A stretch of DNA of 64,000 bases from Escherichia coli (lineage in GTDB: Bacteria; Pseudomonadota; Gammaproteobacteria; Enterobacterales; Enterobacteriaceae): the NCBI RefSeq assembly GCF_003334815.1, contig NZ_QOWO01000013.1; one strand, written 5' to 3'. A model generated the notes under the pieces. That model was given only the letters and a program-made list of their open reading frames with translations. It made no database searches and was not told the DNA's origin. Within the stretch, counting starts at the first letter, position 1, and each line of letters opens with the position of its first letter. The position numbers and the translations under genes are program-made. Shown here piece after piece: positions 21,380 through 61,396 of the stretch.

Positions 21380-21391
21380 GGCGGTAGCGTG
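21380..21391 (+). promoter_or_regulatory. ops element (GGCGGTAGCGTG) in the JUMPstart-like leader of the waaQ operon
   Basis: Exact 12-nt ops consensus on the coding-sense strand, 48 nt upstream of the waaQ GTG. Confidence 0.8.
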
Positions 21392-31365: not shown

Positions 31366-32625
31366 TTAATTAATTGTATTGTTACGATTATTAATGACGA
31401 GTAAGAGGACTATAGCGGATATAATGATAATTGGAATGCTGCGTGCCCATATGATCACATCACTGAGTCCAATCCCCACAATGCCAAGCGTTAATATCAA
31501 CAAACCCAAAGCTCGTTTTTTATATGCTATATAAAATAGTGAAAAATAGAGGAAAAGTGTGGAAAAAATTCCCATCAGACCTTTCAGTGACCCTGCTTCA
31601 ATTATCTCATTATGTAGATGTACGTTAGAAAACTCCAATGCCCCTCTTAGCCTATTGTGTTCTGCAACTAACAAATTCATACTTTCAGCGCGTGACTCTG
31701 CTGATCTAAATGAAAAAGGTGACTTTATGAATATATTTAAACCAATTTCGTACATTGCCAGTCTTGCACCTAGGGAAGTAACACTATTAGCATTGGTATA
31801 ACTGTTTAAGTCATTTAATGCTTCATTATAGCGATTCTGTATTGGTTTATTAAATATAATAACAATGCTAGCTAATATAGCAATTAGTAGAACAATAGAG
31901 GAAGTGAATTTCTTGGGTGATTTATTATAATAAGCTATTAATGCAGCAACACAAATTATAGGGAACAGGAGTAGGGTTGCTCTGGTTTGTGTTAGCGCCA
32001 GAACATAAAGTACCGCGCAACTATTTAATAAAAATAAAAAAGGATGATTTTTCTTAGTATAAAGAATCGCAACGCCACTAACTATCCCTATTAGCATTGT
32101 TGAATATGCTGCTCCTGTTGCCGTTCCTACACCAAAAGAAATGCGGTCATTTTCATGAATGCTATTAATATACATTGCATATCCAGCAATTAGAAATGAC
32201 AGAGAATACAAAGTGTATAATACACTCTCTTTTTTTGATTTTAGCTGGCTAGTTAGTGTCAAGAAAACAATAAAAGAACCAAATATAAATATTTTGGCAG
32301 TATTTAAATAACTATGGTAAGTAGCACGAAATGGCGAATTATCTACTTTAAACGCAGAATACCAAATTAAATCAAGCAAGCCTATTAAAAATATAGAAAG
32401 GGGAAGAATAAGGTTTTTTATATTATAATTTTCTTGTCTGCCACGTAAAATTAGTGACAATAAGCAAACTATAGCAGTGATATTATATATTTTTATGCTG
32501 AAAGTATTATCGACGAATGCAATTATCATTGAAAAAAAACATAATATATAAGTTATTATCTCTAAAATCATTGATGATTTCAGAGTGTAAGGTTTCAATG
32601 AATGAAGTTTAAAGGATGTTAGCAT
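31366..32625 (-). CDS. waaL: O-antigen ligase WaaL
   Basis: ORF track 419 aa; polytopic membrane protein, AT-rich. Confidence 0.88.
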   Translation of the reverse strand: MLTSFKLHSLKPYTLKSSMILEIITYILCFFSMIIAFVDNTFSIKIYNITAIVCLLSLILRGRQENYNIKNLILPLSIFLIGLLDLIWYSAFKVDNSPFRATYHSYLNTAKIFIFGSFIVFLTLTSQLKSKKESVLYTLYSLSFLIAGYAMYINSIHENDRISFGVGTATGAAYSTMLIGIVSGVAILYTKKNHPFLFLLNSCAVLYVLALTQTRATLLLFPIICVAALIAYYNKSPKKFTSSIVLLIAILASIVIIFNKPIQNRYNEALNDLNSYTNANSVTSLGARLAMYEIGLNIFIKSPFSFRSAESRAESMNLLVAEHNRLRGALEFSNVHLHNEIIEAGSLKGLMGIFSTLFLYFSLFYIAYKKRALGLLILTLGIVGIGLSDVIIWARSIPIIIISAIVLLLVINNRNNTIN

Positions 32626-32634
32626 GTTTTACCT

Positions 32635-33594
32635 TTATAATGATGATAACTTTTCCAAAACTGCTTGACTGTTGAGGTTAATTAAATTTTCTCTTGGAGC
32701 CCTACATACCATCTGATTCTTCCCATACCCACCAATTAATCCCGGATCGGTTGGTCCATAAACCGTGATATTGGGTCTATCCAGTGCCGCCGTTAAATGG
32801 CTTAACCCCGTATCCACCGACACTACAAATTTAGCCCCGGCCAGCACGCGGGCAACGCCTTCCAGACTCATCTTCGGCAATACTTCAACATAAGCAAATC
32901 CTTCCGCCAGTCGTTTCGCCCGTTCTTCCTCATGCGGCGCGCCCCACGGAAGTTTAATCCGTATTCCTGAATCAGCCAGTAAACCAATCAATTCTCGCCA
33001 GTGTTCTTCCGGCCAGTGTTTATCATCACGGGTCGTCGCATGAAGAAATACGGCATATTCGCCAGCATCTGTAGGCAGGTTCGTCAGAAAATGCTGTGCG
33101 ATAGCATAATCGCCCTGGGTTTGCGGTTTGCTATAGCCCAAACTTTTGGCAAACAGTTCGCGGGTGCGTTCTACGGCGTGCTGCTGTTTTGCAATATGAT
33201 GCTTACGATTGTAAAACAGGCTGGCTAAAGGTTCGCGAGCGGTTTGCCAGTCCATGCCATGCTTTACGCCATGCGCCAGACGCGTCACCAGCGCCGCGCT
33301 TTTTACCAGCCCCTGAGCGTCGATAACTGCGTCATAGTTCTCTGCTTGTAGCGCTTCACGAAACGCTTTGCGTTCCGCTTTTATGGGGGCCGAGAACCAG
33401 GCTTTACGCCAGCGACGTATTGCCACAGGAATAACTCGCTCAACGGCAGCGTGCCAGGAAGGAATCTGTGCGAACCCTTCTTCCACCACCCAGTCAAACT
33501 TAATCCCTGGGATTGCCTGCTGGGCATCAGTGAGTGCGGGCAACGTATGGAGAACATCGCCCATCGACGATGTTTTAACGATCAAAACCCGCAT
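32635..33594 (-). CDS. waaC: LPS heptosyltransferase I WaaC (GT9)
   Basis: ORF track 319 aa MRVLIVKTSSMGDVLHTLPA... Confidence 0.94.
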   Translation of the reverse strand: MRVLIVKTSSMGDVLHTLPALTDAQQAIPGIKFDWVVEEGFAQIPSWHAAVERVIPVAIRRWRKAWFSAPIKAERKAFREALQAENYDAVIDAQGLVKSAALVTRLAHGVKHGMDWQTAREPLASLFYNRKHHIAKQQHAVERTRELFAKSLGYSKPQTQGDYAIAQHFLTNLPTDAGEYAVFLHATTRDDKHWPEEHWRELIGLLADSGIRIKLPWGAPHEEERAKRLAEGFAYVEVLPKMSLEGVARVLAGAKFVVSVDTGLSHLTAALDRPNITVYGPTDPGLIGGYGKNQMVCRAPRENLINLNSQAVLEKLSSL

Positions 33595-33597
33595 CCG

Positions 33598-34644
33598 TCA
33601 GGCTTCCTCTTGTAACAATAGCGCGTTGAGTTCTTCCAGTACGCGCTGGGGAGTAATGTCGATTAAGCTCTGGTGATAACCCTCCGCAGCGTCACCTTTA
33701 CGCACTTTGTGATAGCCGGTAATCAAACGGATCACGCGCGCTTTATGGGATAGCGGCGGTGTGAAGTCCGGGCTACTCGGACCATACAGGGCAACCAGCG
33801 GACGATTGAGCGCCGCCGCAACATGCATCAGGCCAGAATCGTTAGTGACAATGGCTTTACAGGCTGCAATCAGGATAACCGCTTGATCAAGCTGTGTTTC
33901 CCCCGCCAGGTTCCGACACCATGCCTGCTGCTCGGTATTCAAAGCGGCAAGAATCTCATTGCCCGCTTCATGATCTTTCGCCGAGCCAAACAGAACCACC
34001 TGATAACCTTCATCAATCAGCTGCTTTGCCAGCTCCGCATAGTGGTAGTGTGGCCAGCGTTTTGCCGGACCAAACTCCGCACCCGGGCAAAAACCAATCA
34101 TCGGACGTTCTGATGAAAGCGAAAATTGATTACAGGTATATGATTTTTCACCTTCGCTCACCTGCAACTGCGGCCATAACAATGGCTGCGGCAGATCTTG
34201 TGCTGTGCGCATAATGCCTTTGTCATAGGCCAGCGCTATATAGCGTTCCACCATTAGCGGCCAGGCTTCTTTATCGAGCACGCGTACATCGTTGAGTAAA
34301 CCGTAGCGCATCTCGCCGCGCCAGCCGGTGCGATGAGGAATACCCGCGAAGAAAGGCACTAATGCAGATTTGAAGGAGTTGGGTAAGACGTAGGCGCGGT
34401 CGTAGCGCTTTTCACGCAGGCTATGACCCAGTTTGCGGCGTTCGCCGATTTCCAGCGCTCCGTGACCGAGAGGCATAGGAATAGCTTCGTTAACTTCCGG
34501 CATCCGCGATAATAATGGACGGCACCATGCCGGTGCCATCACATCGATTATCGCCTGGGGATAGCGCGCCTGGAGCGTGCGATAGAGACTTTGCGACATC
34601 ATCATGTCGCCAACCCAAGACGGGCCGATCACCAGTATTTTCAT
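33598..34644 (-). CDS. waaF: LPS heptosyltransferase II WaaF (GT9)
   Basis: ORF track 348 aa MKILVIGPSWVGDMMMSQSL... Confidence 0.94.
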   Translation of the reverse strand: MKILVIGPSWVGDMMMSQSLYRTLQARYPQAIIDVMAPAWCRPLLSRMPEVNEAIPMPLGHGALEIGERRKLGHSLREKRYDRAYVLPNSFKSALVPFFAGIPHRTGWRGEMRYGLLNDVRVLDKEAWPLMVERYIALAYDKGIMRTAQDLPQPLLWPQLQVSEGEKSYTCNQFSLSSERPMIGFCPGAEFGPAKRWPHYHYAELAKQLIDEGYQVVLFGSAKDHEAGNEILAALNTEQQAWCRNLAGETQLDQAVILIAACKAIVTNDSGLMHVAAALNRPLVALYGPSSPDFTPPLSHKARVIRLITGYHKVRKGDAAEGYHQSLIDITPQRVLEELNALLLQEEA

Positions 34645-34653
34645 GCAGAGCTC

Positions 34654-35586
34654 TTATGCGTCGCGATTCAGCCAGGCCATGTATTCCGTTACACCTTCAG
34701 CAACGGTTTTGAACGGTTTGTCGTAACCCGCCGCGCGCAGATTTGTCAGATCTGCCTGAGTGAACGCCTGATAGCGGCCTTTCAGTTTATCCGGGAACGG
34801 AATGTATTCGATCTGGCCTTTCTTGTGATAAGCCAGCGTAGCATCAGCTACCGCCTGGAAGGATTCCGCACGACCAGTACCGAGATTGAAGATGCCGGAA
34901 ACGCCATTTTCCAGGAACCACAGATTCACATCAGCCACGTCGCCCACATAGACGAAGTCGCGTTTGAAGTTCTCGCTACCTTCAAACAGCTTCGGTGATT
35001 CACCGTTGTTAAGCTGGGTGTTGAGATGGAAAGCGACGCTCGCCATGCTGCCTTTATGGCCTTCACGCGGTCCATAAACGTTGAAATAACGGAAGCCAAC
35101 AATCTGCGAGTTCGCTTCAGGCAGGATTTGACGAACATATTCATCAAACAGGAATTTTGAGTAACCGTAGACGTTCAACGGTTTTTCGTACTCGCGGGAT
35201 TCAATAAAGTCGGAGGTGCGTCCGCCGTAGGTGGCTGCGGAAGAAGCGTACAGGAACGGGATTTCACGCTCCAGGCAGTAGTGCAGCAGCTCCTTGGAGT
35301 ATTGATAGTTGTTATCCATCATATACTTGCCGTCCCACTCGGTGGTGGAAGAGCACGCGCCTTCGTGGAAAATCGCTTCGACATCGCCGAACTCTTCGCC
35401 AGCCATAATCTGGATCAGGAAGTCTTCCTTATCCATATAGTCTGCGATATTCAGATCCACCAGGTTCACAAACTTGGTGCCGTCTTTCAGGTTGTCCACC
35501 ACCAGAATATCGGTGATGCCTTTATCATTCAGGGCTTTAACGATGTTGCTGCCGATAAAGCCCGCGCCGCCGGTAACGATGATCAT
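34654..35586 (-). CDS. hldD: ADP-L-glycero-D-manno-heptose 6-epimerase HldD (RfaD)
   Basis: ORF track 310 aa; Rossmann start [16 protein letters not shown]. Confidence 0.95.
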
Positions 35587-35889
35587 AACTGTAACCTTCG
35601 AATTATGGAGTCAGAGACAATCTCAGACACGAATGTCTGTAATCATACCATCACATCCGAATCCCTTCAGCCCTTTACATAGAGGTGCAAGGATGCTAAT
35701 TGCAACAAACTAGTTTGGGTTTTAGCTAGTCCTTCATGGCGGATGTTGGTTTTGCATGTGAATAGTGCTTTAGTATCAATATTCCGATGTATGATAAATA
35801 ACGGAAGCATTTGAATGGATAATATACAGTATACATTCTATTAATATTTATGATATAATTCTTTTTTTATATTAATGGTCTTATTAGTA

Positions 35890-36747
35890 ATGAAATCATC
35901 CACCACAATTATCACTGCATATTTTGACATTGGTAGAGGGGATTGGACTGCTAATAAAGGGTTCCGTGAAAAACTAGCTCGTTCAGTTGATGTTTATTTT
36001 AGTTACTTTGAGCGTCTGGCCGCACTTGAAAATGAGATGATTATTTTCACTTCTCCCGATTTGAAACCAAGGGTTGAAGCGATTCGCAACGGAAAACCAA
36101 CAACGGTTATCGTTATCGATATAAAAAAGAAATTTAGATATATCAGAAGTCGTATCGAAAAAATTCAAAAAGATGAGTCGTTTACAAATAGACTTGAGCC
36201 TCGACAATTAAAAAACCCAGAGTACTGGTCACCAGAGTATGTTTTGGTATGTAACCTTAAGGCCTATTTTGTAAATAAAGCTATCAACATGGGCTTAGTG
36301 AAAACGCCTCTTGTTGCGTGGATAGATTTTGGCTATTGCCGTAAGCCAAATGTAACTCGAGGATTGAAAATTTGGGATTTCCCATTTGATGAAAGTAAGA
36401 TGCATCTTTTCACTATAAAAAAAGGGCTTACTGTCACATCTCAACAACAGGTTTTTGATTTCATGATTGGCAATCATGTATATATTATTGGGGGCGCAAT
36501 TGTTGGTTCACAGCATAAATGGAAAGAATTCTATAAATTAGTTCTGGAAAGTCAAAAAATAACACTAAATAATAACATTGTGGACGATGACCAGGGCATT
36601 TTTGTCATGTGCTATTACAAACGCCCCGATCTCTTCAACCTAAACTATCTGGGGAGAGGAAAATGGTTCGATTTGTTTCGCTGCTTCAGGAGTAACACTT
36701 TAGGGGCAAAAATGCAGGCGCTGAGAATTTTCCTTTCAAGAAAATAG
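35890..36747 (+). CDS. htrL: HtrL/YibB-family protein (function unknown, LPS-cluster associated)
   Basis: ORF track 35875..36747; ATG 35890 gives 285 aa (MKSSTTIITAYFDIGRGDW...); upstream ATG 35875 also possible. Confidence 0.8.
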   Translation: MKSSTTIITAYFDIGRGDWTANKGFREKLARSVDVYFSYFERLAALENEMIIFTSPDLKPRVEAIRNGKPTTVIVIDIKKKFRYIRSRIEKIQKDESFTNRLEPRQLKNPEYWSPEYVLVCNLKAYFVNKAINMGLVKTPLVAWIDFGYCRKPNVTRGLKIWDFPFDESKMHLFTIKKGLTVTSQQQVFDFMIGNHVYIIGGAIVGSQHKWKEFYKLVLESQKITLNNNIVDDDQGIFVMCYYKRPDLFNLNYLGRGKWFDLFRCFRSNTLGAKMQALRIFLSRK

Positions 36748-36793
36748 GTTTCCCTCCATTAGTGGGTAGCGTTTTGATACCAACTGAGATAGG

Positions 36794-36826
36794 AAAAATG
36801 ATGCTTTGGCATCATTTTTTCTTTTT
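36794..36826 (+). terminator. intrinsic terminator downstream of htrL
   Basis: AAAAATGATGC-tttg-GCATCATTTTT hairpin running into a T-rich tract. Confidence 0.55.
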
Positions 36827-37021
36827 ATATCAATGCAGTAAAATCAATCATCATTATGCCCAGCCAAAACTGTACAGTTTTTCTACTATCTGTAGGTGTT
36901 GAGAGACATCAAGTTACACGTTATTTATCCTGAATTTTGCAGAAGTGTTAACGCGTTATCTCGTCGCGACCTATAAGTTTGGGTAATATGTGCTGGAATT
37001 TGCCCTGTCTGGAGAATCGCA

Positions 37022-38218
37022 ATGCGTGGAGAATTTTATCAGCAGTTAACCAACGATCTGGAAACCGCACGGGCGGAAGGGTTGTTTAAAGAAGAGCGCA
37101 TTATTACGTCTGCGCAGCAAGCAGATATCACTGTGGCTGATGGAAGCCACGTCATTAACTTTTGTGCCAACAACTATCTCGGGCTGGCGAATCATCCTGA
37201 TCTGATTGCGGCGGCAAAGGCGGGAATGGATTCTCACGGTTTCGGCATGGCTTCGGTGCGTTTTATTTGCGGCACTCAGGACAGCCATAAAGAGCTTGAA
37301 CAAAAACTGGCGGCCTTCCTGGGGATGGAAGATGCGATTCTCTACTCTTCCTGCTTTGATGCTAACGGTGGCCTGTTTGAAACGCTTCTGGGTGCGGAAG
37401 ACGCCATTATCTCCGACGCACTGAACCACGCGTCTATTATTGATGGTGTGCGTCTGTGCAAAGCTAAACGCTATCGCTATGCCAACAACGATATGCAGGA
37501 GCTGGAAGCACGTCTGAAAGAAGCGCGTGAAGCCGGTGCGCGTCATGTGCTGATCGCCACCGATGGTGTGTTCTCAATGGACGGCGTGATTGCCAACCTG
37601 AAGGGCGTTTGCGATCTGGCAGATAAATATGATGCCCTGGTGATGGTAGACGACTCCCACGCGGTCGGTTTTGTCGGTGAAAATGGTCGTGGTTCCCATG
37701 AATACTGCGATGTGATGGGCCGGGTCGATATTATCACCGGTACGCTTGGTAAAGCGCTGGGCGGGGCTTCTGGTGGTTATACCGCGGCGCGCAAAGAAGT
37801 GGTTGAGTGGCTGCGCCAGCGTTCTCGTCCGTACCTGTTCTCCAACTCGCTGGCACCGGCCATTGTTGCCGCGTCCATCAAAGTACTGGAGATGGTCGAA
37901 GCGGGCAGCGAACTGCGTGACCGTCTGTGGGCGAACGCGCGTCAGTTCCGTGAGCAAATGTCGGCGGCGGGCTTTACCCTGGCGGGAGCCGATCACGCCA
38001 TTATTCCGGTCATGCTTGGTGATGCGGTAGTGGCGCAGAAATTTGCCCGTGAGCTGCAAAAAGAGGGCATTTACGTTACCGGTTTCTTCTATCCGGTCGT
38101 TCCGAAAGGTCAGGCGCGTATTCGTACCCAGATGTCTGCGGCGCATACCCCTGAGCAAATTACGCGTGCAGTAGAAGCATTTACGCGTATTGGTAAACAA
38201 CTGGGCGTTATCGCCTGA
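37022..38218 (+). CDS. kbl: 2-amino-3-ketobutyrate CoA ligase (glycine C-acetyltransferase)
   Basis: ORF track 398 aa; PLP-dependent class II aminotransferase-like. Confidence 0.95.
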
Positions 38219-38227
38219 GGATGTGAG

Positions 38228-39253
38228 ATGAAAGCGTTATCCAAACTGAAAGCGGAAGAGGGCATCTGGATGACCGACGTTCCTGTACCGGAACTCGGGC
38301 ATAACGATCTGCTGATTAAAATCCGTAAAACAGCCATCTGCGGGACTGACGTTCACATCTATAACTGGGATGAGTGGTCGCAAAAAACCATCCCGGTGCC
38401 GATGGTCGTGGGCCATGAATATGTCGGTGAAGTGGTAGGTATTGGTCAGGAAGTGAAAGGCTTCAAGATCGGCGATCGCGTTTCTGGCGAAGGCCATATC
38501 ACCTGTGGTCATTGCCGCAACTGTCGTGGTGGTCGTACCCATTTGTGCCGCAACACGATAGGCGTTGGTGTTAATCGCCCGGGCTGCTTTGCCGAATATC
38601 TGGTGATCCCGGCATTCAACGCCTTCAAAATCCCCGACAATATTTCCGATGACTTAGCCGCAATTTTTGATCCCTTCGGTAACGCCGTGCATACCGCGCT
38701 GTCGTTTGATCTGGTGGGCGAAGATGTGCTGGTTTCTGGTGCAGGCCCGATTGGTATTATGGCAGCGGCGGTGGCGAAACACGTTGGTGCACGCAATGTG
38801 GTGATCACTGATGTTAACGAATACCGCCTTGAGCTGGCGCGTAAAATGGGTATCACCCGTGCGGTTAACGTCGCCAAAGAAAATCTCAATGACGTGATGG
38901 CGGAGTTAGGCATGACCGAAGGTTTTGATGTCGGTCTGGAAATGTCCGGTGCGCCGCCAGCGTTTCGTACCATGCTTGACACCATGAACCACGGCGGCCG
39001 TATTGCGATGCTGGGTATTCCGCCGTCTGATATGTCTATCGACTGGACCAAAGTGATCTTTAAAGGCTTGTTCATTAAAGGTATTTACGGTCGTGAGATG
39101 TTTGAAACCTGGTACAAGATGGCGGCGCTGATTCAGTCTGGCCTCGATCTTTCGCCGATCATTACCCATCGTTTCTCTATCGATGATTTCCAGAAGGGCT
39201 TTGACGCTATGCGTTCGGGCCAGTCCGGGAAAGTTATTCTGAGCTGGGATTAA
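38228..39253 (+). CDS. tdh: L-threonine 3-dehydrogenase
   Basis: ORF track 341 aa; zinc-ADH motifs GHEYVGEV and CGHCRNC. Confidence 0.95.
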
Positions 39254-39491: not shown

Positions 39492-40526
39492 ATGATGAAC
39501 AGCACCAATAAACTTAGTGTTATTATTCCGTTATATAATGCGGGCGATGATTTCCGCACTTGTATGGAATCTTTAATTACGCAAACCTGGACTGCTCTGG
39601 AAATCATTATTATTAACGATGGTTCAACGGATAATTCTGTTGAAATAGCAAAGTATTACGCAGAAAACTATCCGCACGTTCGTTTGTTGCATCAGGCGAA
39701 TGCTGGCGCATCGGTGGCGCGTAATCGTGGGATTGAAGTGGCAACGGGCAAATATGTCGCTTTTGTCGATGCTGACGATGAAGTCTATCCCACCATGTAC
39801 GAAACGCTGATGACCATGGCGTTAGAGGACGACCTCGACGTGGCGCAGTGCAACGCTGACTGGTGTTTTCGTGAAACGGGAGAAACCTGGCAATCCATCC
39901 CCACCGATCGCCTTCGCTCAACCGGCGTATTAACCGGCCCGGACTGGCTGCGGATGGGGCTTTCTTCGCGCCGTTGGACTCACGTTGTCTGGATGGGGGT
40001 TTATCGCCGTGATGTTATTGTTAAAAATAACATTAAATTTATTGCCGGATTACATCATCAGGATATTGTCTGGACAACAGAATTCATGTTTAACGCGCTG
40101 CGTGCGCGATATACCGAGCAATCATTATATAAATATTATCTGCATAATACGTCAGTGAGTCGGTTGCATAGACAAGGGAATAAAAACCTTAATTATCAAC
40201 GTCACTATATTAAGATTACCCGCCTGCTGGAGAAATTAAATCGAAATTATGCCGACAAAATTATGATTTATCCGGAATTTCATCAGCAAATAACTTACGA
40301 GGCATTGCGTGTTTGCCATGCGGTGCGCAAAGAGCCGGATATTCTTACCCGCCAACGGATGATTGCCGAGATATTTACTTCCGGTATGTATAAGCGCCTG
40401 ATTACCAATGTGCGCAGCGTGAAGGTCGGTTACCAGGCGTTACTGTGGTCTTTCCGCTTATGGCAATGGCGCGACAAAACGCGGTCGCACCATCGCATTA
40501 CGCGTAGCGCCTTTAATTTGCGCTAG
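39492..40526 (+). CDS. waaH: family 2 glycosyltransferase WaaH (YibD)
   Basis: ORF track 344 aa; GT2 N-terminus LSVIIPLYNAG...IIIINDGSTDNS and DxD (FVDADDE). Confidence 0.88.
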   Translation: MMNSTNKLSVIIPLYNAGDDFRTCMESLITQTWTALEIIIINDGSTDNSVEIAKYYAENYPHVRLLHQANAGASVARNRGIEVATGKYVAFVDADDEVYPTMYETLMTMALEDDLDVAQCNADWCFRETGETWQSIPTDRLRSTGVLTGPDWLRMGLSSRRWTHVVWMGVYRRDVIVKNNIKFIAGLHHQDIVWTTEFMFNALRARYTEQSLYKYYLHNTSVSRLHRQGNKNLNYQRHYIKITRLLEKLNRNYADKIMIYPEFHQQITYEALRVCHAVRKEPDILTRQRMIAEIFTSGMYKRLITNVRSVKVGYQALLWSFRLWQWRDKTRSHHRITRSAFNLR

Positions 40527-59330: not shown

Positions 59331-59892
59331 GGGGGAGGGGGGAGATTATGGAACTTTGCTCCTTGTAAGGACTAATTATTTTTGCATATTACTTCATTAG
59401 CTGCGATGATTTTTCTTTAATATTCATTATGTTAATAAGTTCTGGATGAGTGTGCTCTCATTGGATTTTTTATCCGTCTTGTTCTGCCGCAGGATGAGAC
59501 TATACATCGTCGAGATCGCAATGATGATATGAGTTGTTCCTCCTGCGACGGCTCTAATCAAAAAAGAGCAGGAGTGCTTTTCCATCTATTGCGATGATGG
59601 CTTTATTATCTGAAGGATGACAGTCACATTTAAAAAATATTTAATCTATAGATCACAATGTAGGGTCATGGAATATATGTATACAACTATTTTCTTCTTC
59701 ACTTTTAATTATCGTATTCATTATAAAACTAAGTTAAAAAAACTCCTGGAGAGTGAGTTATTAATATATTTTTAAATAAAATTAAGTTATCATTCATCGA
59801 TGCACTTTATAGAATCATCAATGGCCATAATAGTACTATTAACTCTCAATTTTATATTTTTATCATCACTACAAATATTAACTGAATTTATA

Positions 59893-60228
59893 TCAATGAT
59901 TTTTTTTATTCTTATCTTTTATTTTATTTACTGTTTCAATGCAATCAGCGGCAAGTTGGAGTGGATTTAGATTTTTCAGATATGGTCTTATGATCTTTCC
60001 CTTACTTAATAAATAGCATGTATAGGATTCGGAAAGTCCAGCATCTATTTTGTACCTCATTATATTAGATAAGGATGTGAGAAATTCCTTGTTATCATTC
60101 GCAGCCATATATGCCAGTCCGAGTTCAGCCTCTGCGGCCTTACAGGCAAAATAGCTTAGTGAACACGCTTTTCGTCCCTCTTTAGTACTGGCTGATATTA
60201 GTGCCCATAATATTGCTTTGTCTGCCAA
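59893..60228 (-). CDS. hypothetical 111-aa ORF at the distal end of the rhs accessory array (possible orphan immunity gene)
   Basis: ORF track only; track start is a TTG and the first ATG is internal; AT-rich; no recognisable motif. Confidence 0.35.
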   Translation of the reverse strand: MADKAILWALISASTKEGRKACSLSYFACKAAEAELGLAYMAANDNKEFLTSLSNIMRYKIDAGLSESYTCYLLSKGKIIRPYLKNLNPLQLAADCIETVNKIKDKNKKNH

Positions 60229-60316
60229 ATCTAACTCTCTCTGAAATTGTCTTGCAGTAACTGCACTCGCAGAAATAGAGAAAAAAATACAATTGTTAAT
60301 AACCTTGCCATATTTT

Positions 60317-60610
60317 TTAGTCCGTAACTGTTAATGTGCTATCTGGCTCTGAAAATATTAACTCATTTAATTTTTGCATGTCATTAGATAAACCAGTTAT
60401 ACAACCCTCGGAACAGAATCGAGGTCCTAAAGACGGACCAAAAGCGTTTAAACAACTATGTATTGAAAATCCATTGCGATTATAAGTTCCTGTATTAACT
60501 GACGGTACTAATCGTATGCCGTCAGGTTTTCTATTGCTTGCTCCCGGGTCATTAACATTCCAACTCCATAGGCCTTGAGGTATTGGCCATCTATTTATAA
60601 ATGTGTACAA
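60317..60610 (-). pseudogene. probable remnant of an orphan Rhs C-terminal toxin tip
   Basis: ORF track 97 aa starting at TTG; lies directly downstream of the degenerate rhs core-end fragment but in a different frame. Confidence 0.35.
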
Positions 60611-60744
60611 CGGGGATTATTTTTACATTGCATATTATTACCAGAAGCGACTGGAATACTAAGCACATCATAAAAATTATCATCACATGGTATATCTGAA
60701 ACACACGAAAGCATACCTAAAGTTATGCTGTATAAACAGGTGGC

Positions 60745-60925
60745 TAATCCCAAGGGGATCGATTCCAGAAATCGGGTTCAACGGATACTGATAAAAATTC
60801 CACCTACCTTCCAGCCCAATCGGAGCCTGAGTGTTATACCGCCCCTGCTGCGGTTAATGTTACCGATAATAGTTATAGTACAGCCCTGATTCATCATCAT
60901 ACTACTGCTGCGGCAGTCTGATGAA
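60745..60925 (-). pseudogene. degenerate Rhs core C-terminal fragment with in-frame stops
   Basis: Reverse translation gives [54 protein letters not shown], a decayed copy of the rhs core end ([20 protein letters not shown]...[24 protein letters not shown]). Confidence 0.6.
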
Positions 60926-60934
60926 CTATTGCTT

Positions 60935-61396
60935 TTACGGATTCTCCTTATTCTTCCTTCTATCCATTCGCTTTAGCTTTTTGAGCTCTTGAAGTTTGCT
61001 CTTTGCATCAATATTACCGTTATTTACAGCGAATTCCATCCAATAAATAGCTCTATTCAAATTATAATATTCTGATAATGTTGGATTTGTATCTGATAAA
61101 AAGACCCCATAATTAAACTGCGCTGTAACATTCCCCTGAGATGCTGATCTTTCCAAGAATCGCAATTGTTTGTAAATGTTATTTTTAGTAAAGCAGTAAT
61201 ATTGATATAGTCGAAATGATGCCTCTGAATCACCATGTTGTGATTTATACTTCAGTTTCATCAACTTTTCTTCACTTAAATCATAGGTCATTGCTGTAGA
61301 CCCCATCATACTTTCGTTTTGTTTTATTTTCACATCAGCACCATGCAATTGACAAATAAAAGAGAAATAAAAAAATAGTAACAAGCATGCTTTCAT
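60935..61396 (-). CDS. yibG: Sel1-repeat protein YibG with N-terminal signal-peptide-like segment (putative immunity protein for the yibJ toxin tip)
   Basis: ORF track 153 aa; 12 nt downstream of yibJ stop. Confidence 0.82.
   Translation of the reverse strand: MKACLLLFFYFSFICQLHGADVKIKQNESMMGSTAMTYDLSEEKLMKLKYKSQHGDSEASFRLYQYYCFTKNNIYKQLRFLERSASQGNVTAQFNYGVFLSDTNPTLSEYYNLNRAIYWMEFAVNNGNIDAKSKLQELKKLKRMDRRKNKENP

Follow-up and report, generated by a model that had tools for sequence, protein, structure and literature searches.

The window analyzed here, a 64,000-nucleotide stretch of Escherichia coli DNA (contig NZ_QOWO01000013.1, assembly GCF_003334815.1), covers the waa region and carries a K-12-type waa cluster. 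Between hldD and kbl lies htrL (yibB), a plus-strand open reading frame (ORF) at 35875-36747. Its product is predicted with high confidence to adopt a GT-A (nucleotide-diphospho-sugar transferase) fold, and homologues in other organisms have glycan-assembly genes as annotated neighbors. On balance, we lean toward the view that HtrL is a peripheral GT-A transferase adding a non-stoichiometric, so far undetected, sugar to the lipopolysaccharide (LPS) core.

An earlier note, made from the letters of the window, had named the gene htrL, and this identity is well founded. The product gives full-length profile matches above curated cutoffs to NCBIfam NF008462 "protein YibB" (551 bits, cutoff 342) and to TIGR02192 (439 bits, cutoff 265), and it matches Pfam PF09612 HtrL_YibB over the whole model (E 1.7e-129, model 1-267/267). 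RefSeq annotates yibB in K-12 MG1655, with a start equivalent to 35890. htrL is thus an already-known, uncharacterized gene. Pfam labels PF09612 as of "unknown function", and the NCBI family name was beforehand "WlaTC/HtrL family glycosyltransferase". The novelty of a glycosyltransferase (GT) assignment is therefore low.

Predicted Fold and Conserved Residues

HtrL (285 aa, 33.5 kDa, pI 9.7) lacks any hydrophobic stretch of membrane-spanning length. Fold prediction, one of the checks that the earlier note had proposed, was carried out with AlphaFold2. The resulting model (pLDDT 95.8, pTM 0.92) displays the single-domain alpha/beta/alpha Rossmann-like fold that characterizes GT-A enzymes. Its structural matches include the GT6 enzyme BoGT6a (score 12.3), ABO GTB (12.0), PBCV-1 A64R (11.5), LARGE1 (11.1) and UGGT (10.6), the GT8 enzymes GlyE (10.6), LgtC (10.0) and glycogenin (9.4-9.8), and sugar nucleotidyltransferases (about 9-10.5). 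Sequence identity across these matches is 9-13%, and Foldseek concurs (E about 1e-5, TM 0.42-0.46). The longest spans and the lowest root mean square deviations are obtained with glycosyltransferases (171-182 residues at 3.0-3.2 Å), as compared with about 150 residues at 4.2 Å for the nucleotidyltransferase NeuA. On this model, the chemistry of HtrL would most probably be glycosyl transfer.

The family was sampled by a scan of 1.84 billion representative proteins, which gave 906 clusters at E <=0.001, and conservation was derived from an alignment of 80 full-length PF09612 representatives. F40, Y117, W144 and D146 are invariant. At least 90% conservation is found for V8, T9, F11, D13, R16 (79/80), R31, Y36, N48, E111, K124, F147, G148, Y149, G201 and the D232-D233-D234-Q235 stretch. 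The E. coli protein keeps all of F40, Y117, W144, D146, D13, R16, F147-Y149 and D232-Q235. The earlier note had seen no recognizable catalytic motif in HtrL. This remains correct in that no classified catalytic family matches, but the alignment does bring out family-conserved candidate catalytic residues.

In the model, T9-F11-D13-R16 follows strand 1, on the nucleotide-binding side of GT-A enzymes. The invariant W-x-D146-F-G-Y comes after the fourth strand (141-145), at the location of the DXD motif in GT-A enzymes, with a single Asp there. The D-D-D-Q loop stands ahead of helix 234-244 and, in a greedy hhalign alignment without significance, is paired with the P-D-Q-D of the GT8 enzymes WaaO and WaaJ, both of which are encoded in the same window as htrL. 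Because the alignment is not significant, these residue equivalences are only suggestive.

The nearest structural relatives are the retaining GT-A enzymes of families GT6 (BoGT6a, ABO GTA/GTB) and GT8 (LgtC, glycogenin, WaaO, WaaJ), at the low identities given above. HtrL differs from them by its single Asp instead of DXD and by a large helical insert (residues 78-133). It also lacks HxxGxxKPW, the C-terminal motif of GT8. Searches of the PDB by sequence and by family profile returned chance-level matches only. Pfam, applied to the 80 representatives, found no second family, with neither Glyco_transf_8, Glyco_transf_6 nor any other GT at E <=0.001. A fold search of AFDB50 retrieved PF09612 members only, without functional lead beyond the family. 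Membership of CAZy GT8 (LgtC/WaaO type) or GT6 was considered and rejected, no Pfam or PDB-profile match and no significant hhalign match to WaaO/WaaJ being obtained.

Genomic Context of the Family

A genome scan identified HtrL homologues at 69 loci distributed across many lineages, the context being read from the loci with annotated neighbors. Homologues occur in Enterobacterales, Moraxellaceae, Pasteurellaceae, Psittacicella, Leptotrichia, Negativicutes, Campylobacter and Treponema, as well as in Hyphomicrobiales, Parachlamydiaceae, Clostridia, Bacilli and Mycoplasma-like metagenome-assembled genomes (MAGs). Their annotated neighbors are glycan-assembly genes, often with heptosyltransferase genes among them. 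In Providencia, hldD-waaF-waaC-htrL run in this order along a single strand, with an ArnT-like gene and waaA next in line. In Acinetobacter, htrL has a GT25 gene on one side and a Caps_synth gene on the other, within the locus for the lipooligosaccharide (LOS) outer core. The homologue of Campylobacter troglodytis is directly upstream of a waaF-like gene, that of Pectinatus comes after GT9 and GT4 genes, and that of H. parainfluenzae is two genes away from a GT9-like gene. In Moraxella porci, msbA is found two genes after the homologue. In Treponema and Leptotrichia, the homologue adjoins GT4 genes, and in the Gram-positive Trichococcus, GT4 and GT2 genes are among the neighbors.

Bacterial HtrL domains are also fused to other domains, namely Caps_synth/Gly_transf_sug (GT32-like), the GlcNAc-transferase domain PF11397 and, weakly, a methyltransferase domain (E 0.007). 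The partner domains were recognized by Pfam, NCBIfam recognizing the HtrL part alone. Fusions to GT domains are typical of two-module glycosyltransferases.

By its NCBI name, the family also includes WlaTC of Campylobacter jejuni 81116, and HtrL matches the family models over its full length and above the curated cutoffs. The Campylobacter relatives are encoded in the LOS locus beside waaF and share only about 26-31% identity with HtrL. PMC3841222 counts the wlaTC mutants of C. jejuni 81116 among LOS-metabolism mutants and cites their adherence as reduced.

Other copies have different surroundings. The YibB-family copy of Salmonella enterica (53% identity; locus L004, 6001-6855) is an isolated low-GC gene in an unrelated locus, near a Mig-14-family gene. 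That of Citrobacter freundii (61%; locus L013, 5001-5858) is likewise an isolated low-GC gene in an unrelated locus, near dinI and a peptidase S24 fragment. Many animal proteins likewise contain a PF09612 domain, and the UniProt entries returned by the AFDB50 search show several of these to be multidomain.

An Optional Cassette at a Fixed Site

As the earlier note had described, htrL is divergent from hldD behind an AT-rich region of about 300 bp (35587-35889; 303 bp, 33.7% GC) and is itself AT-rich. The coding sequence (CDS) has 37.2% GC (GC3 35%), against 52% for hldD-waaF-waaC and 53% for kbl-tdh (GC3 55% for kbl alone). Alignment with genomes that lack the gene delimits a cassette whose GC content is 3.1 standard deviations below that of 1283-bp windows taken from the 64-kb sequence minus the waa/htrL region. 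This composition is not unique to htrL, since the waaQ-waaL outer-core genes are equally GC-poor. A second very-low-GC patch is present at about 59800-61100, where 1283-bp windows from about 59.8 kb have at most 36% GC.

A search of 5426 complete E. coli genomes found the htrL CDS in 1958 (36%), always on the chromosome, and the other 64% lack it. Among the carriers, 1950 have at least 80% of the CDS in one piece and 1720 have at least 99% identity. In htrL-minus genomes, the megablast match is limited to the first 46-49 nt beside hldD. In the two such strains that were inspected (ST131 and VG1046-3E9), hldD and kbl are separated by 213 bp without any gene, and about 62 bp of dissimilar sequence there stand in place of the cassette. 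Presence or absence at a fixed site together with a deviant composition (0.36 against 0.52-0.53 GC) fits a horizontally exchanged islet. No integrase or transposase ORF was found at the cassette, and its borders show no convincing direct repeat, only short AT-rich matches.

Two repeats may be mentioned, both AT-rich and within what chance could produce. The CDS and its terminator are bracketed by a 19-nt imperfect direct repeat (35859-35877 and 36817-36835), and an 11-nt perfect inverted repeat (35793-35803 and 36919-36929) has one arm exactly at the right border of the cassette. IS1A or IS903B insertions interrupt htrL in a few E. coli genomes, and the fragments so produced are called "WlaTC/HtrL family glycosyltransferase", a name that the NCBI annotation pipeline also gives to distant members. 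ISKpn26 is found in the adjacent hldD-waaFC region of an occasional E. coli genome.

The possibility that htrL tracks the K-12 core type was tested in a joint query with the K-12-type waaL (31366-32625) and rejected, all four combinations being found. Both genes are present in 451 genomes. htrL occurs without K-12-type waaL in, among others, O157:H7 and O104:H4, one group of genomes has a K-12-like waaL (97.7% identity) and no htrL, and another has neither. The presence of htrL is thus independent of the outer-core type, which is compatible with an inner-core acceptor common to all core types.

Two other species, Cedecea davisae (82% aa identity) and Atlantibacter hermannii (77%), share the divergent hldD/htrL/kbl order, and in each of them the GC content of htrL falls some 10 points short of that of the neighboring sequence. 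For E. coli against Cedecea, a pN of 0.094 and a pS of 0.70 were obtained (dN/dS about 0.05), values similar to those of hldD, kbl and waaF. Judged from these sequence comparisons, htrL is under strong purifying selection. Syntenic orthologues under such selection indicate that htrL was not recently added to the site. Moreover, E. coli HtrL is nearer to the Cedecea protein than to that of Atlantibacter, whereas hldD, waaF and kbl show the reverse. These opposite affinities indicate exchange of the cassette via its conserved flanks. The earlier note's picture of a gene "bolted onto" the LPS cluster therefore fits a dispensable cassette carried by 36% of genomes, but not a recent addition.

Start Codon, Promoter and Terminator

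The two closely spaced candidate ATG codons reported in the earlier note (35875 and 35890) are both present and in frame. The orthologues of Cedecea, Atlantibacter, Citrobacter, Providencia and Acinetobacter all start at the equivalent of 35890, with M-K/N-S-S-T/I-T-I. The upstream ATG has no equivalent in Atlantibacter, and in Cedecea it falls in another reading frame. Since the orthologues begin at 35890 and the upstream ATG is not conserved, we take 35890 as the start of a 285-aa protein. From this comparison, the five codons 35875..35889 are probably not translated as part of HtrL.

The predicted promoter matches the consensus at 10 of 12 positions and has, in addition, the TG of an extended -10 element. 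The core GTACA...TGATATAAT is invariant across E. coli, Cedecea and Atlantibacter, the surroundings having diverged. Identical hexamers were given for htrL by Shimada et al. (PMC3946193), in whose genomic SELEX the htrL spacer was bound by the RpoD holoenzyme and was flagged as an H-NS site. At the other end of the gene, the terminator claimed in the earlier note satisfies the usual description of a Rho-independent signal, with a stem at 36791-36822 followed by a T run. The hairpin folds at -18.6 kcal/mol (z = -4.7; none of 200 shuffled sequences folds as well), and stable hairpins are also found just downstream of the Cedecea and Atlantibacter orthologues. From its sequence signals, htrL is thus a monocistronic unit that brings a sigma-70 promoter and an intrinsic terminator of its own and is set between two divergent operons, hldD-waaFC and kbl-tdh. 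The features of the region are collected in Table 1.

Table 1. Genes and sequence signals around htrL, in window coordinates.
Feature	Position	Strand	Remarks
waaC	32635-33594	minus	
waaF	33598-34644	minus	
hldD	34654-35586	minus	
hldD-proximal spacer (left flank), common to htrL-plus and htrL-minus genomes	35587..35634		identity ends near 35634
htrL cassette	35635..36917	+	about 1283 bp, 36.1% GC; alignment against ST131 and VG1046-3E9; borders within about 20 bp either way
htrL promoter	35830..35859	+	TATACA-18 nt-TATAAT, extended -10 (TGATATAAT); consensus scan
Upstream in-frame ATG and 5 extra codons	35875..35889	+	not conserved; some 8 nt away from where the -10 element would place the transcription start
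htrL/yibB CDS	35890..36747	+	285 aa and stop; PF09612; predicted GT-A fold
htrL intrinsic terminator	36791..36830	+	14-bp stem, 4-nt loop, T run; hairpin 36791-36822, by folding
kbl-proximal shared spacer (right flank)	36918..37021		same alignment as for the cassette
kbl	37022-38218	plus	
tdh	38228-39253	plus	

One genome annotation labels yibB "RfaH-regulated". No ops element (GGCGGTAGnnTG) was found near htrL, even when one mismatch was allowed, so that this label is without sequence support. The sole exact ops/JUMPstart of the window (GGCGGTAGCGTG, 21380-21391) precedes waaQ, in keeping with the dependence of the long waa operon on RfaH. Transcripts of htrL have been detected. They load with those of the rfa genes in an ethanol-evolution transcriptome (PMC3091726) and are increased 2.9-fold under ciprofloxacin in EDL933 (PMC11125564). 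An Rfam scan of 35300-37200 gave a single sub-threshold snoRNA match, taken as chance.

The cassette also concerns the neighboring operon. It replaces all sequence lying more than about 48 nt before the start codon of hldD (35635-35889), and the hldD promoter predicted in PMC3946193 (TTAATA-17-CATAAA) falls inside it (35847-35875, minus strand). In the 213-bp spacer of htrL-minus strains, a consensus promoter scan gave no match. Because the cassette replaces the upstream region of hldD, hldD-waaFC may be driven by differing upstream sequences in htrL-plus and htrL-minus strains.

The K-12 Allele

The htrL of the window differs from that of MG1655 by a single base (36341; G in the window, A in K-12), which changes R151 to His. 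Arginine is found at position 151, five residues after the invariant D146, in 71 of the 80 representatives, and O157:H7 and O111:H8 also encode the R151 protein. With a 61-nt probe, 1945 carriers were scored; 1557 of these genomes have the window allele, and 388 differ from it by one mismatch. Most of the one-mismatch genomes sampled are recognizable K-12 laboratory derivatives. As far as conservation can tell, the H151 allele of laboratory K-12 may be hypomorphic. Because K-12 carries R151H, negative results obtained in this strain may be uninformative on the native enzyme. A second difference from MG1655 is found at 38989 in tdh (T in MG1655, C in the window), and with the two together the window stands apart from the MG1655 reference.

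Function and Alternatives

From the model and the genomic contexts, we infer the following scheme. HtrL would be a soluble, basic enzyme that works on the cytoplasmic side of the inner membrane. A housekeeping nucleotide-sugar would be bound by the N-terminal beta1 loop (T9, F11, D13, R16), W144-x-D146-F-G-Y would occupy the DXD position at the end of the fourth strand, and the D232-D-D-Q235 loop would lie beside the sugar or the acceptor, like the D-Q-D of retaining GT8 enzymes. One sugar would be transferred, non-stoichiometrically, onto lipid A-core, the acceptor plausibly being the heptose (inner-core) region common to all core types. The earlier note had pointed out that htrL sits where LPS-modifying accessory genes tend to sit. 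The idea of an accessory transferase survives, its link to LPS in E. coli resting on location and relatives.

A comparable gene lies nearby. Like htrL, waaH (yibD; 39492-40526) is a stand-alone accessory gene just outside the waa operons, and its product adds non-stoichiometric glucuronic acid (GlcUA) on HepIII under specific regulation (PMC6358824). Unlike HtrL, WaaH belongs to GT2, has a demonstrated product and is under PhoB/R control. Also unlike htrL, waaH is present in the htrL-minus genomes that were inspected (ST131 and VG1046-3E9).

It should, however, be noted that several observations weigh against an LPS-core glycosyltransferase. In papers on the outer-core locus of Acinetobacter, HtrL still figures as a protein of unknown function (PMC4172580, PMC10327509), and no report of a biochemical activity for any family member was found in the searchable literature. 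Comparison of the HtrL profile with GT8 (WaaO/WaaJ, 0.6%) and Caps_synth by hhalign gave probabilities below 1%, not significant in local mode, and the canonical DXD is absent as such, reduced to one invariant Asp. Given the H-NS site attributed to the spacer, expression of htrL may be low under laboratory conditions. To our knowledge, every sugar of the published K-12 core has an assigned transferase, which leaves no orphan linkage for HtrL. Finally, the copies of Salmonella and Citrobacter freundii are outside LPS loci, and the family extends to Gram-positive bacteria and animals. With members outside LPS loci, in organisms without LPS and in animals, the family would be a general glycan-modifying module rather than an LPS-specific one.

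These observations bear on the choice of acceptor. HtrL could be a GT-A glycosyltransferase that, in E. coli, acts outside the LPS core (on enterobacterial common antigen (ECA), O-antigen, capsule, colanic acid intermediates, a protein or a small molecule), its linkage to hldD being historical. The organisms without LPS (Trichococcus, Lachnospiraceae, Mycoplasma-like MAGs), the animal members and the isolated copies of Salmonella and C. freundii in unrelated loci would then be readily accounted for, as would a distribution of htrL in E. coli that does not follow core type and a K-12 core in which no orphan linkage is known. We nevertheless hold this to be rather unlikely, because the gene is repeatedly linked to heptosyltransferase or inner-core genes in Gram-negative lineages that are unrelated (Escherichia, Cedecea, Atlantibacter, Providencia, Campylobacter, Pectinatus and Haemophilus), and because the Acinetobacter copy is within the LOS outer-core locus. 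A different chemistry on the same GT-A/nucleotidyltransferase fold, either activation of a sugar or alditol phosphate by a nucleoside triphosphate (NTP) or transfer of a phospho-substituent onto a glycan, seems quite improbable. Sugar nucleotidyltransferases possess a G-x-G-x-R phosphate loop, which the D-I-G-R following strand 1 of HtrL, with its R16 in 79/80 sequences, resembles, and the missing canonical DXD would be consistent with such an activity. Yet the best structural matches in span and deviation are glycosyltransferases (171-182 residues at 3.0-3.2 Å) rather than NeuA (about 150 at 4.2 Å), the gene takes a glycosyltransferase-type slot in its loci, the domain is fused to GT domains, and the E. 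coli, Cedecea and Atlantibacter genes are without adjacent precursor-pathway genes.

It may also be asked whether E. coli htrL has any present envelope role, or is instead a silenced, dispensable remnant in the course of being lost. The gene is missing, without replacement, in 64% of complete genomes, its spacer is flagged as H-NS-bound (PMC3946193), IS1, IS903B or other disruptions occur in a few strains, K-12 carries R151H at a conserved Arg, and a yibB transposon mutant was without effect in a silkworm killing screen (PMC9278758). Such a remnant is nonetheless very hard to reconcile with strong purifying selection between genera, with a CDS of intact length in 1950 of 1958 carriers, mostly at 99% identity or more, with the retention of all family-conserved residues outside K-12, with a conserved promoter and terminator, and with the detection of transcripts. 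The dN/dS ratio, the 1950/1958 intact copies, the expression signals kept across genera and the reported transcripts together indicate that htrL is functional. A more ambitious proposal, that HtrL is the founder of a GT-A family unclassified by CAZy and missed owing to the K-12 R151H change and the H-NS-bound promoter region, strikes us as doubtful.

Implications

In favoring an LPS-core glycosyltransferase, the present analysis sharpens a known annotation, for a long-standing gene of unknown function within one of the most thoroughly mapped pathways. It adds a predicted GT-A fold, candidate residues (D13, R16, D146 and D232-Q235) and the designation of R151 as the right allele. If HtrL does modify the core as an active transferase, a third of E. 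coli, with major pathogen lineages among them, would produce a form of LPS that is missing from the core structures now described. This would have a bearing on phage receptors, serum resistance and core-directed antibodies.

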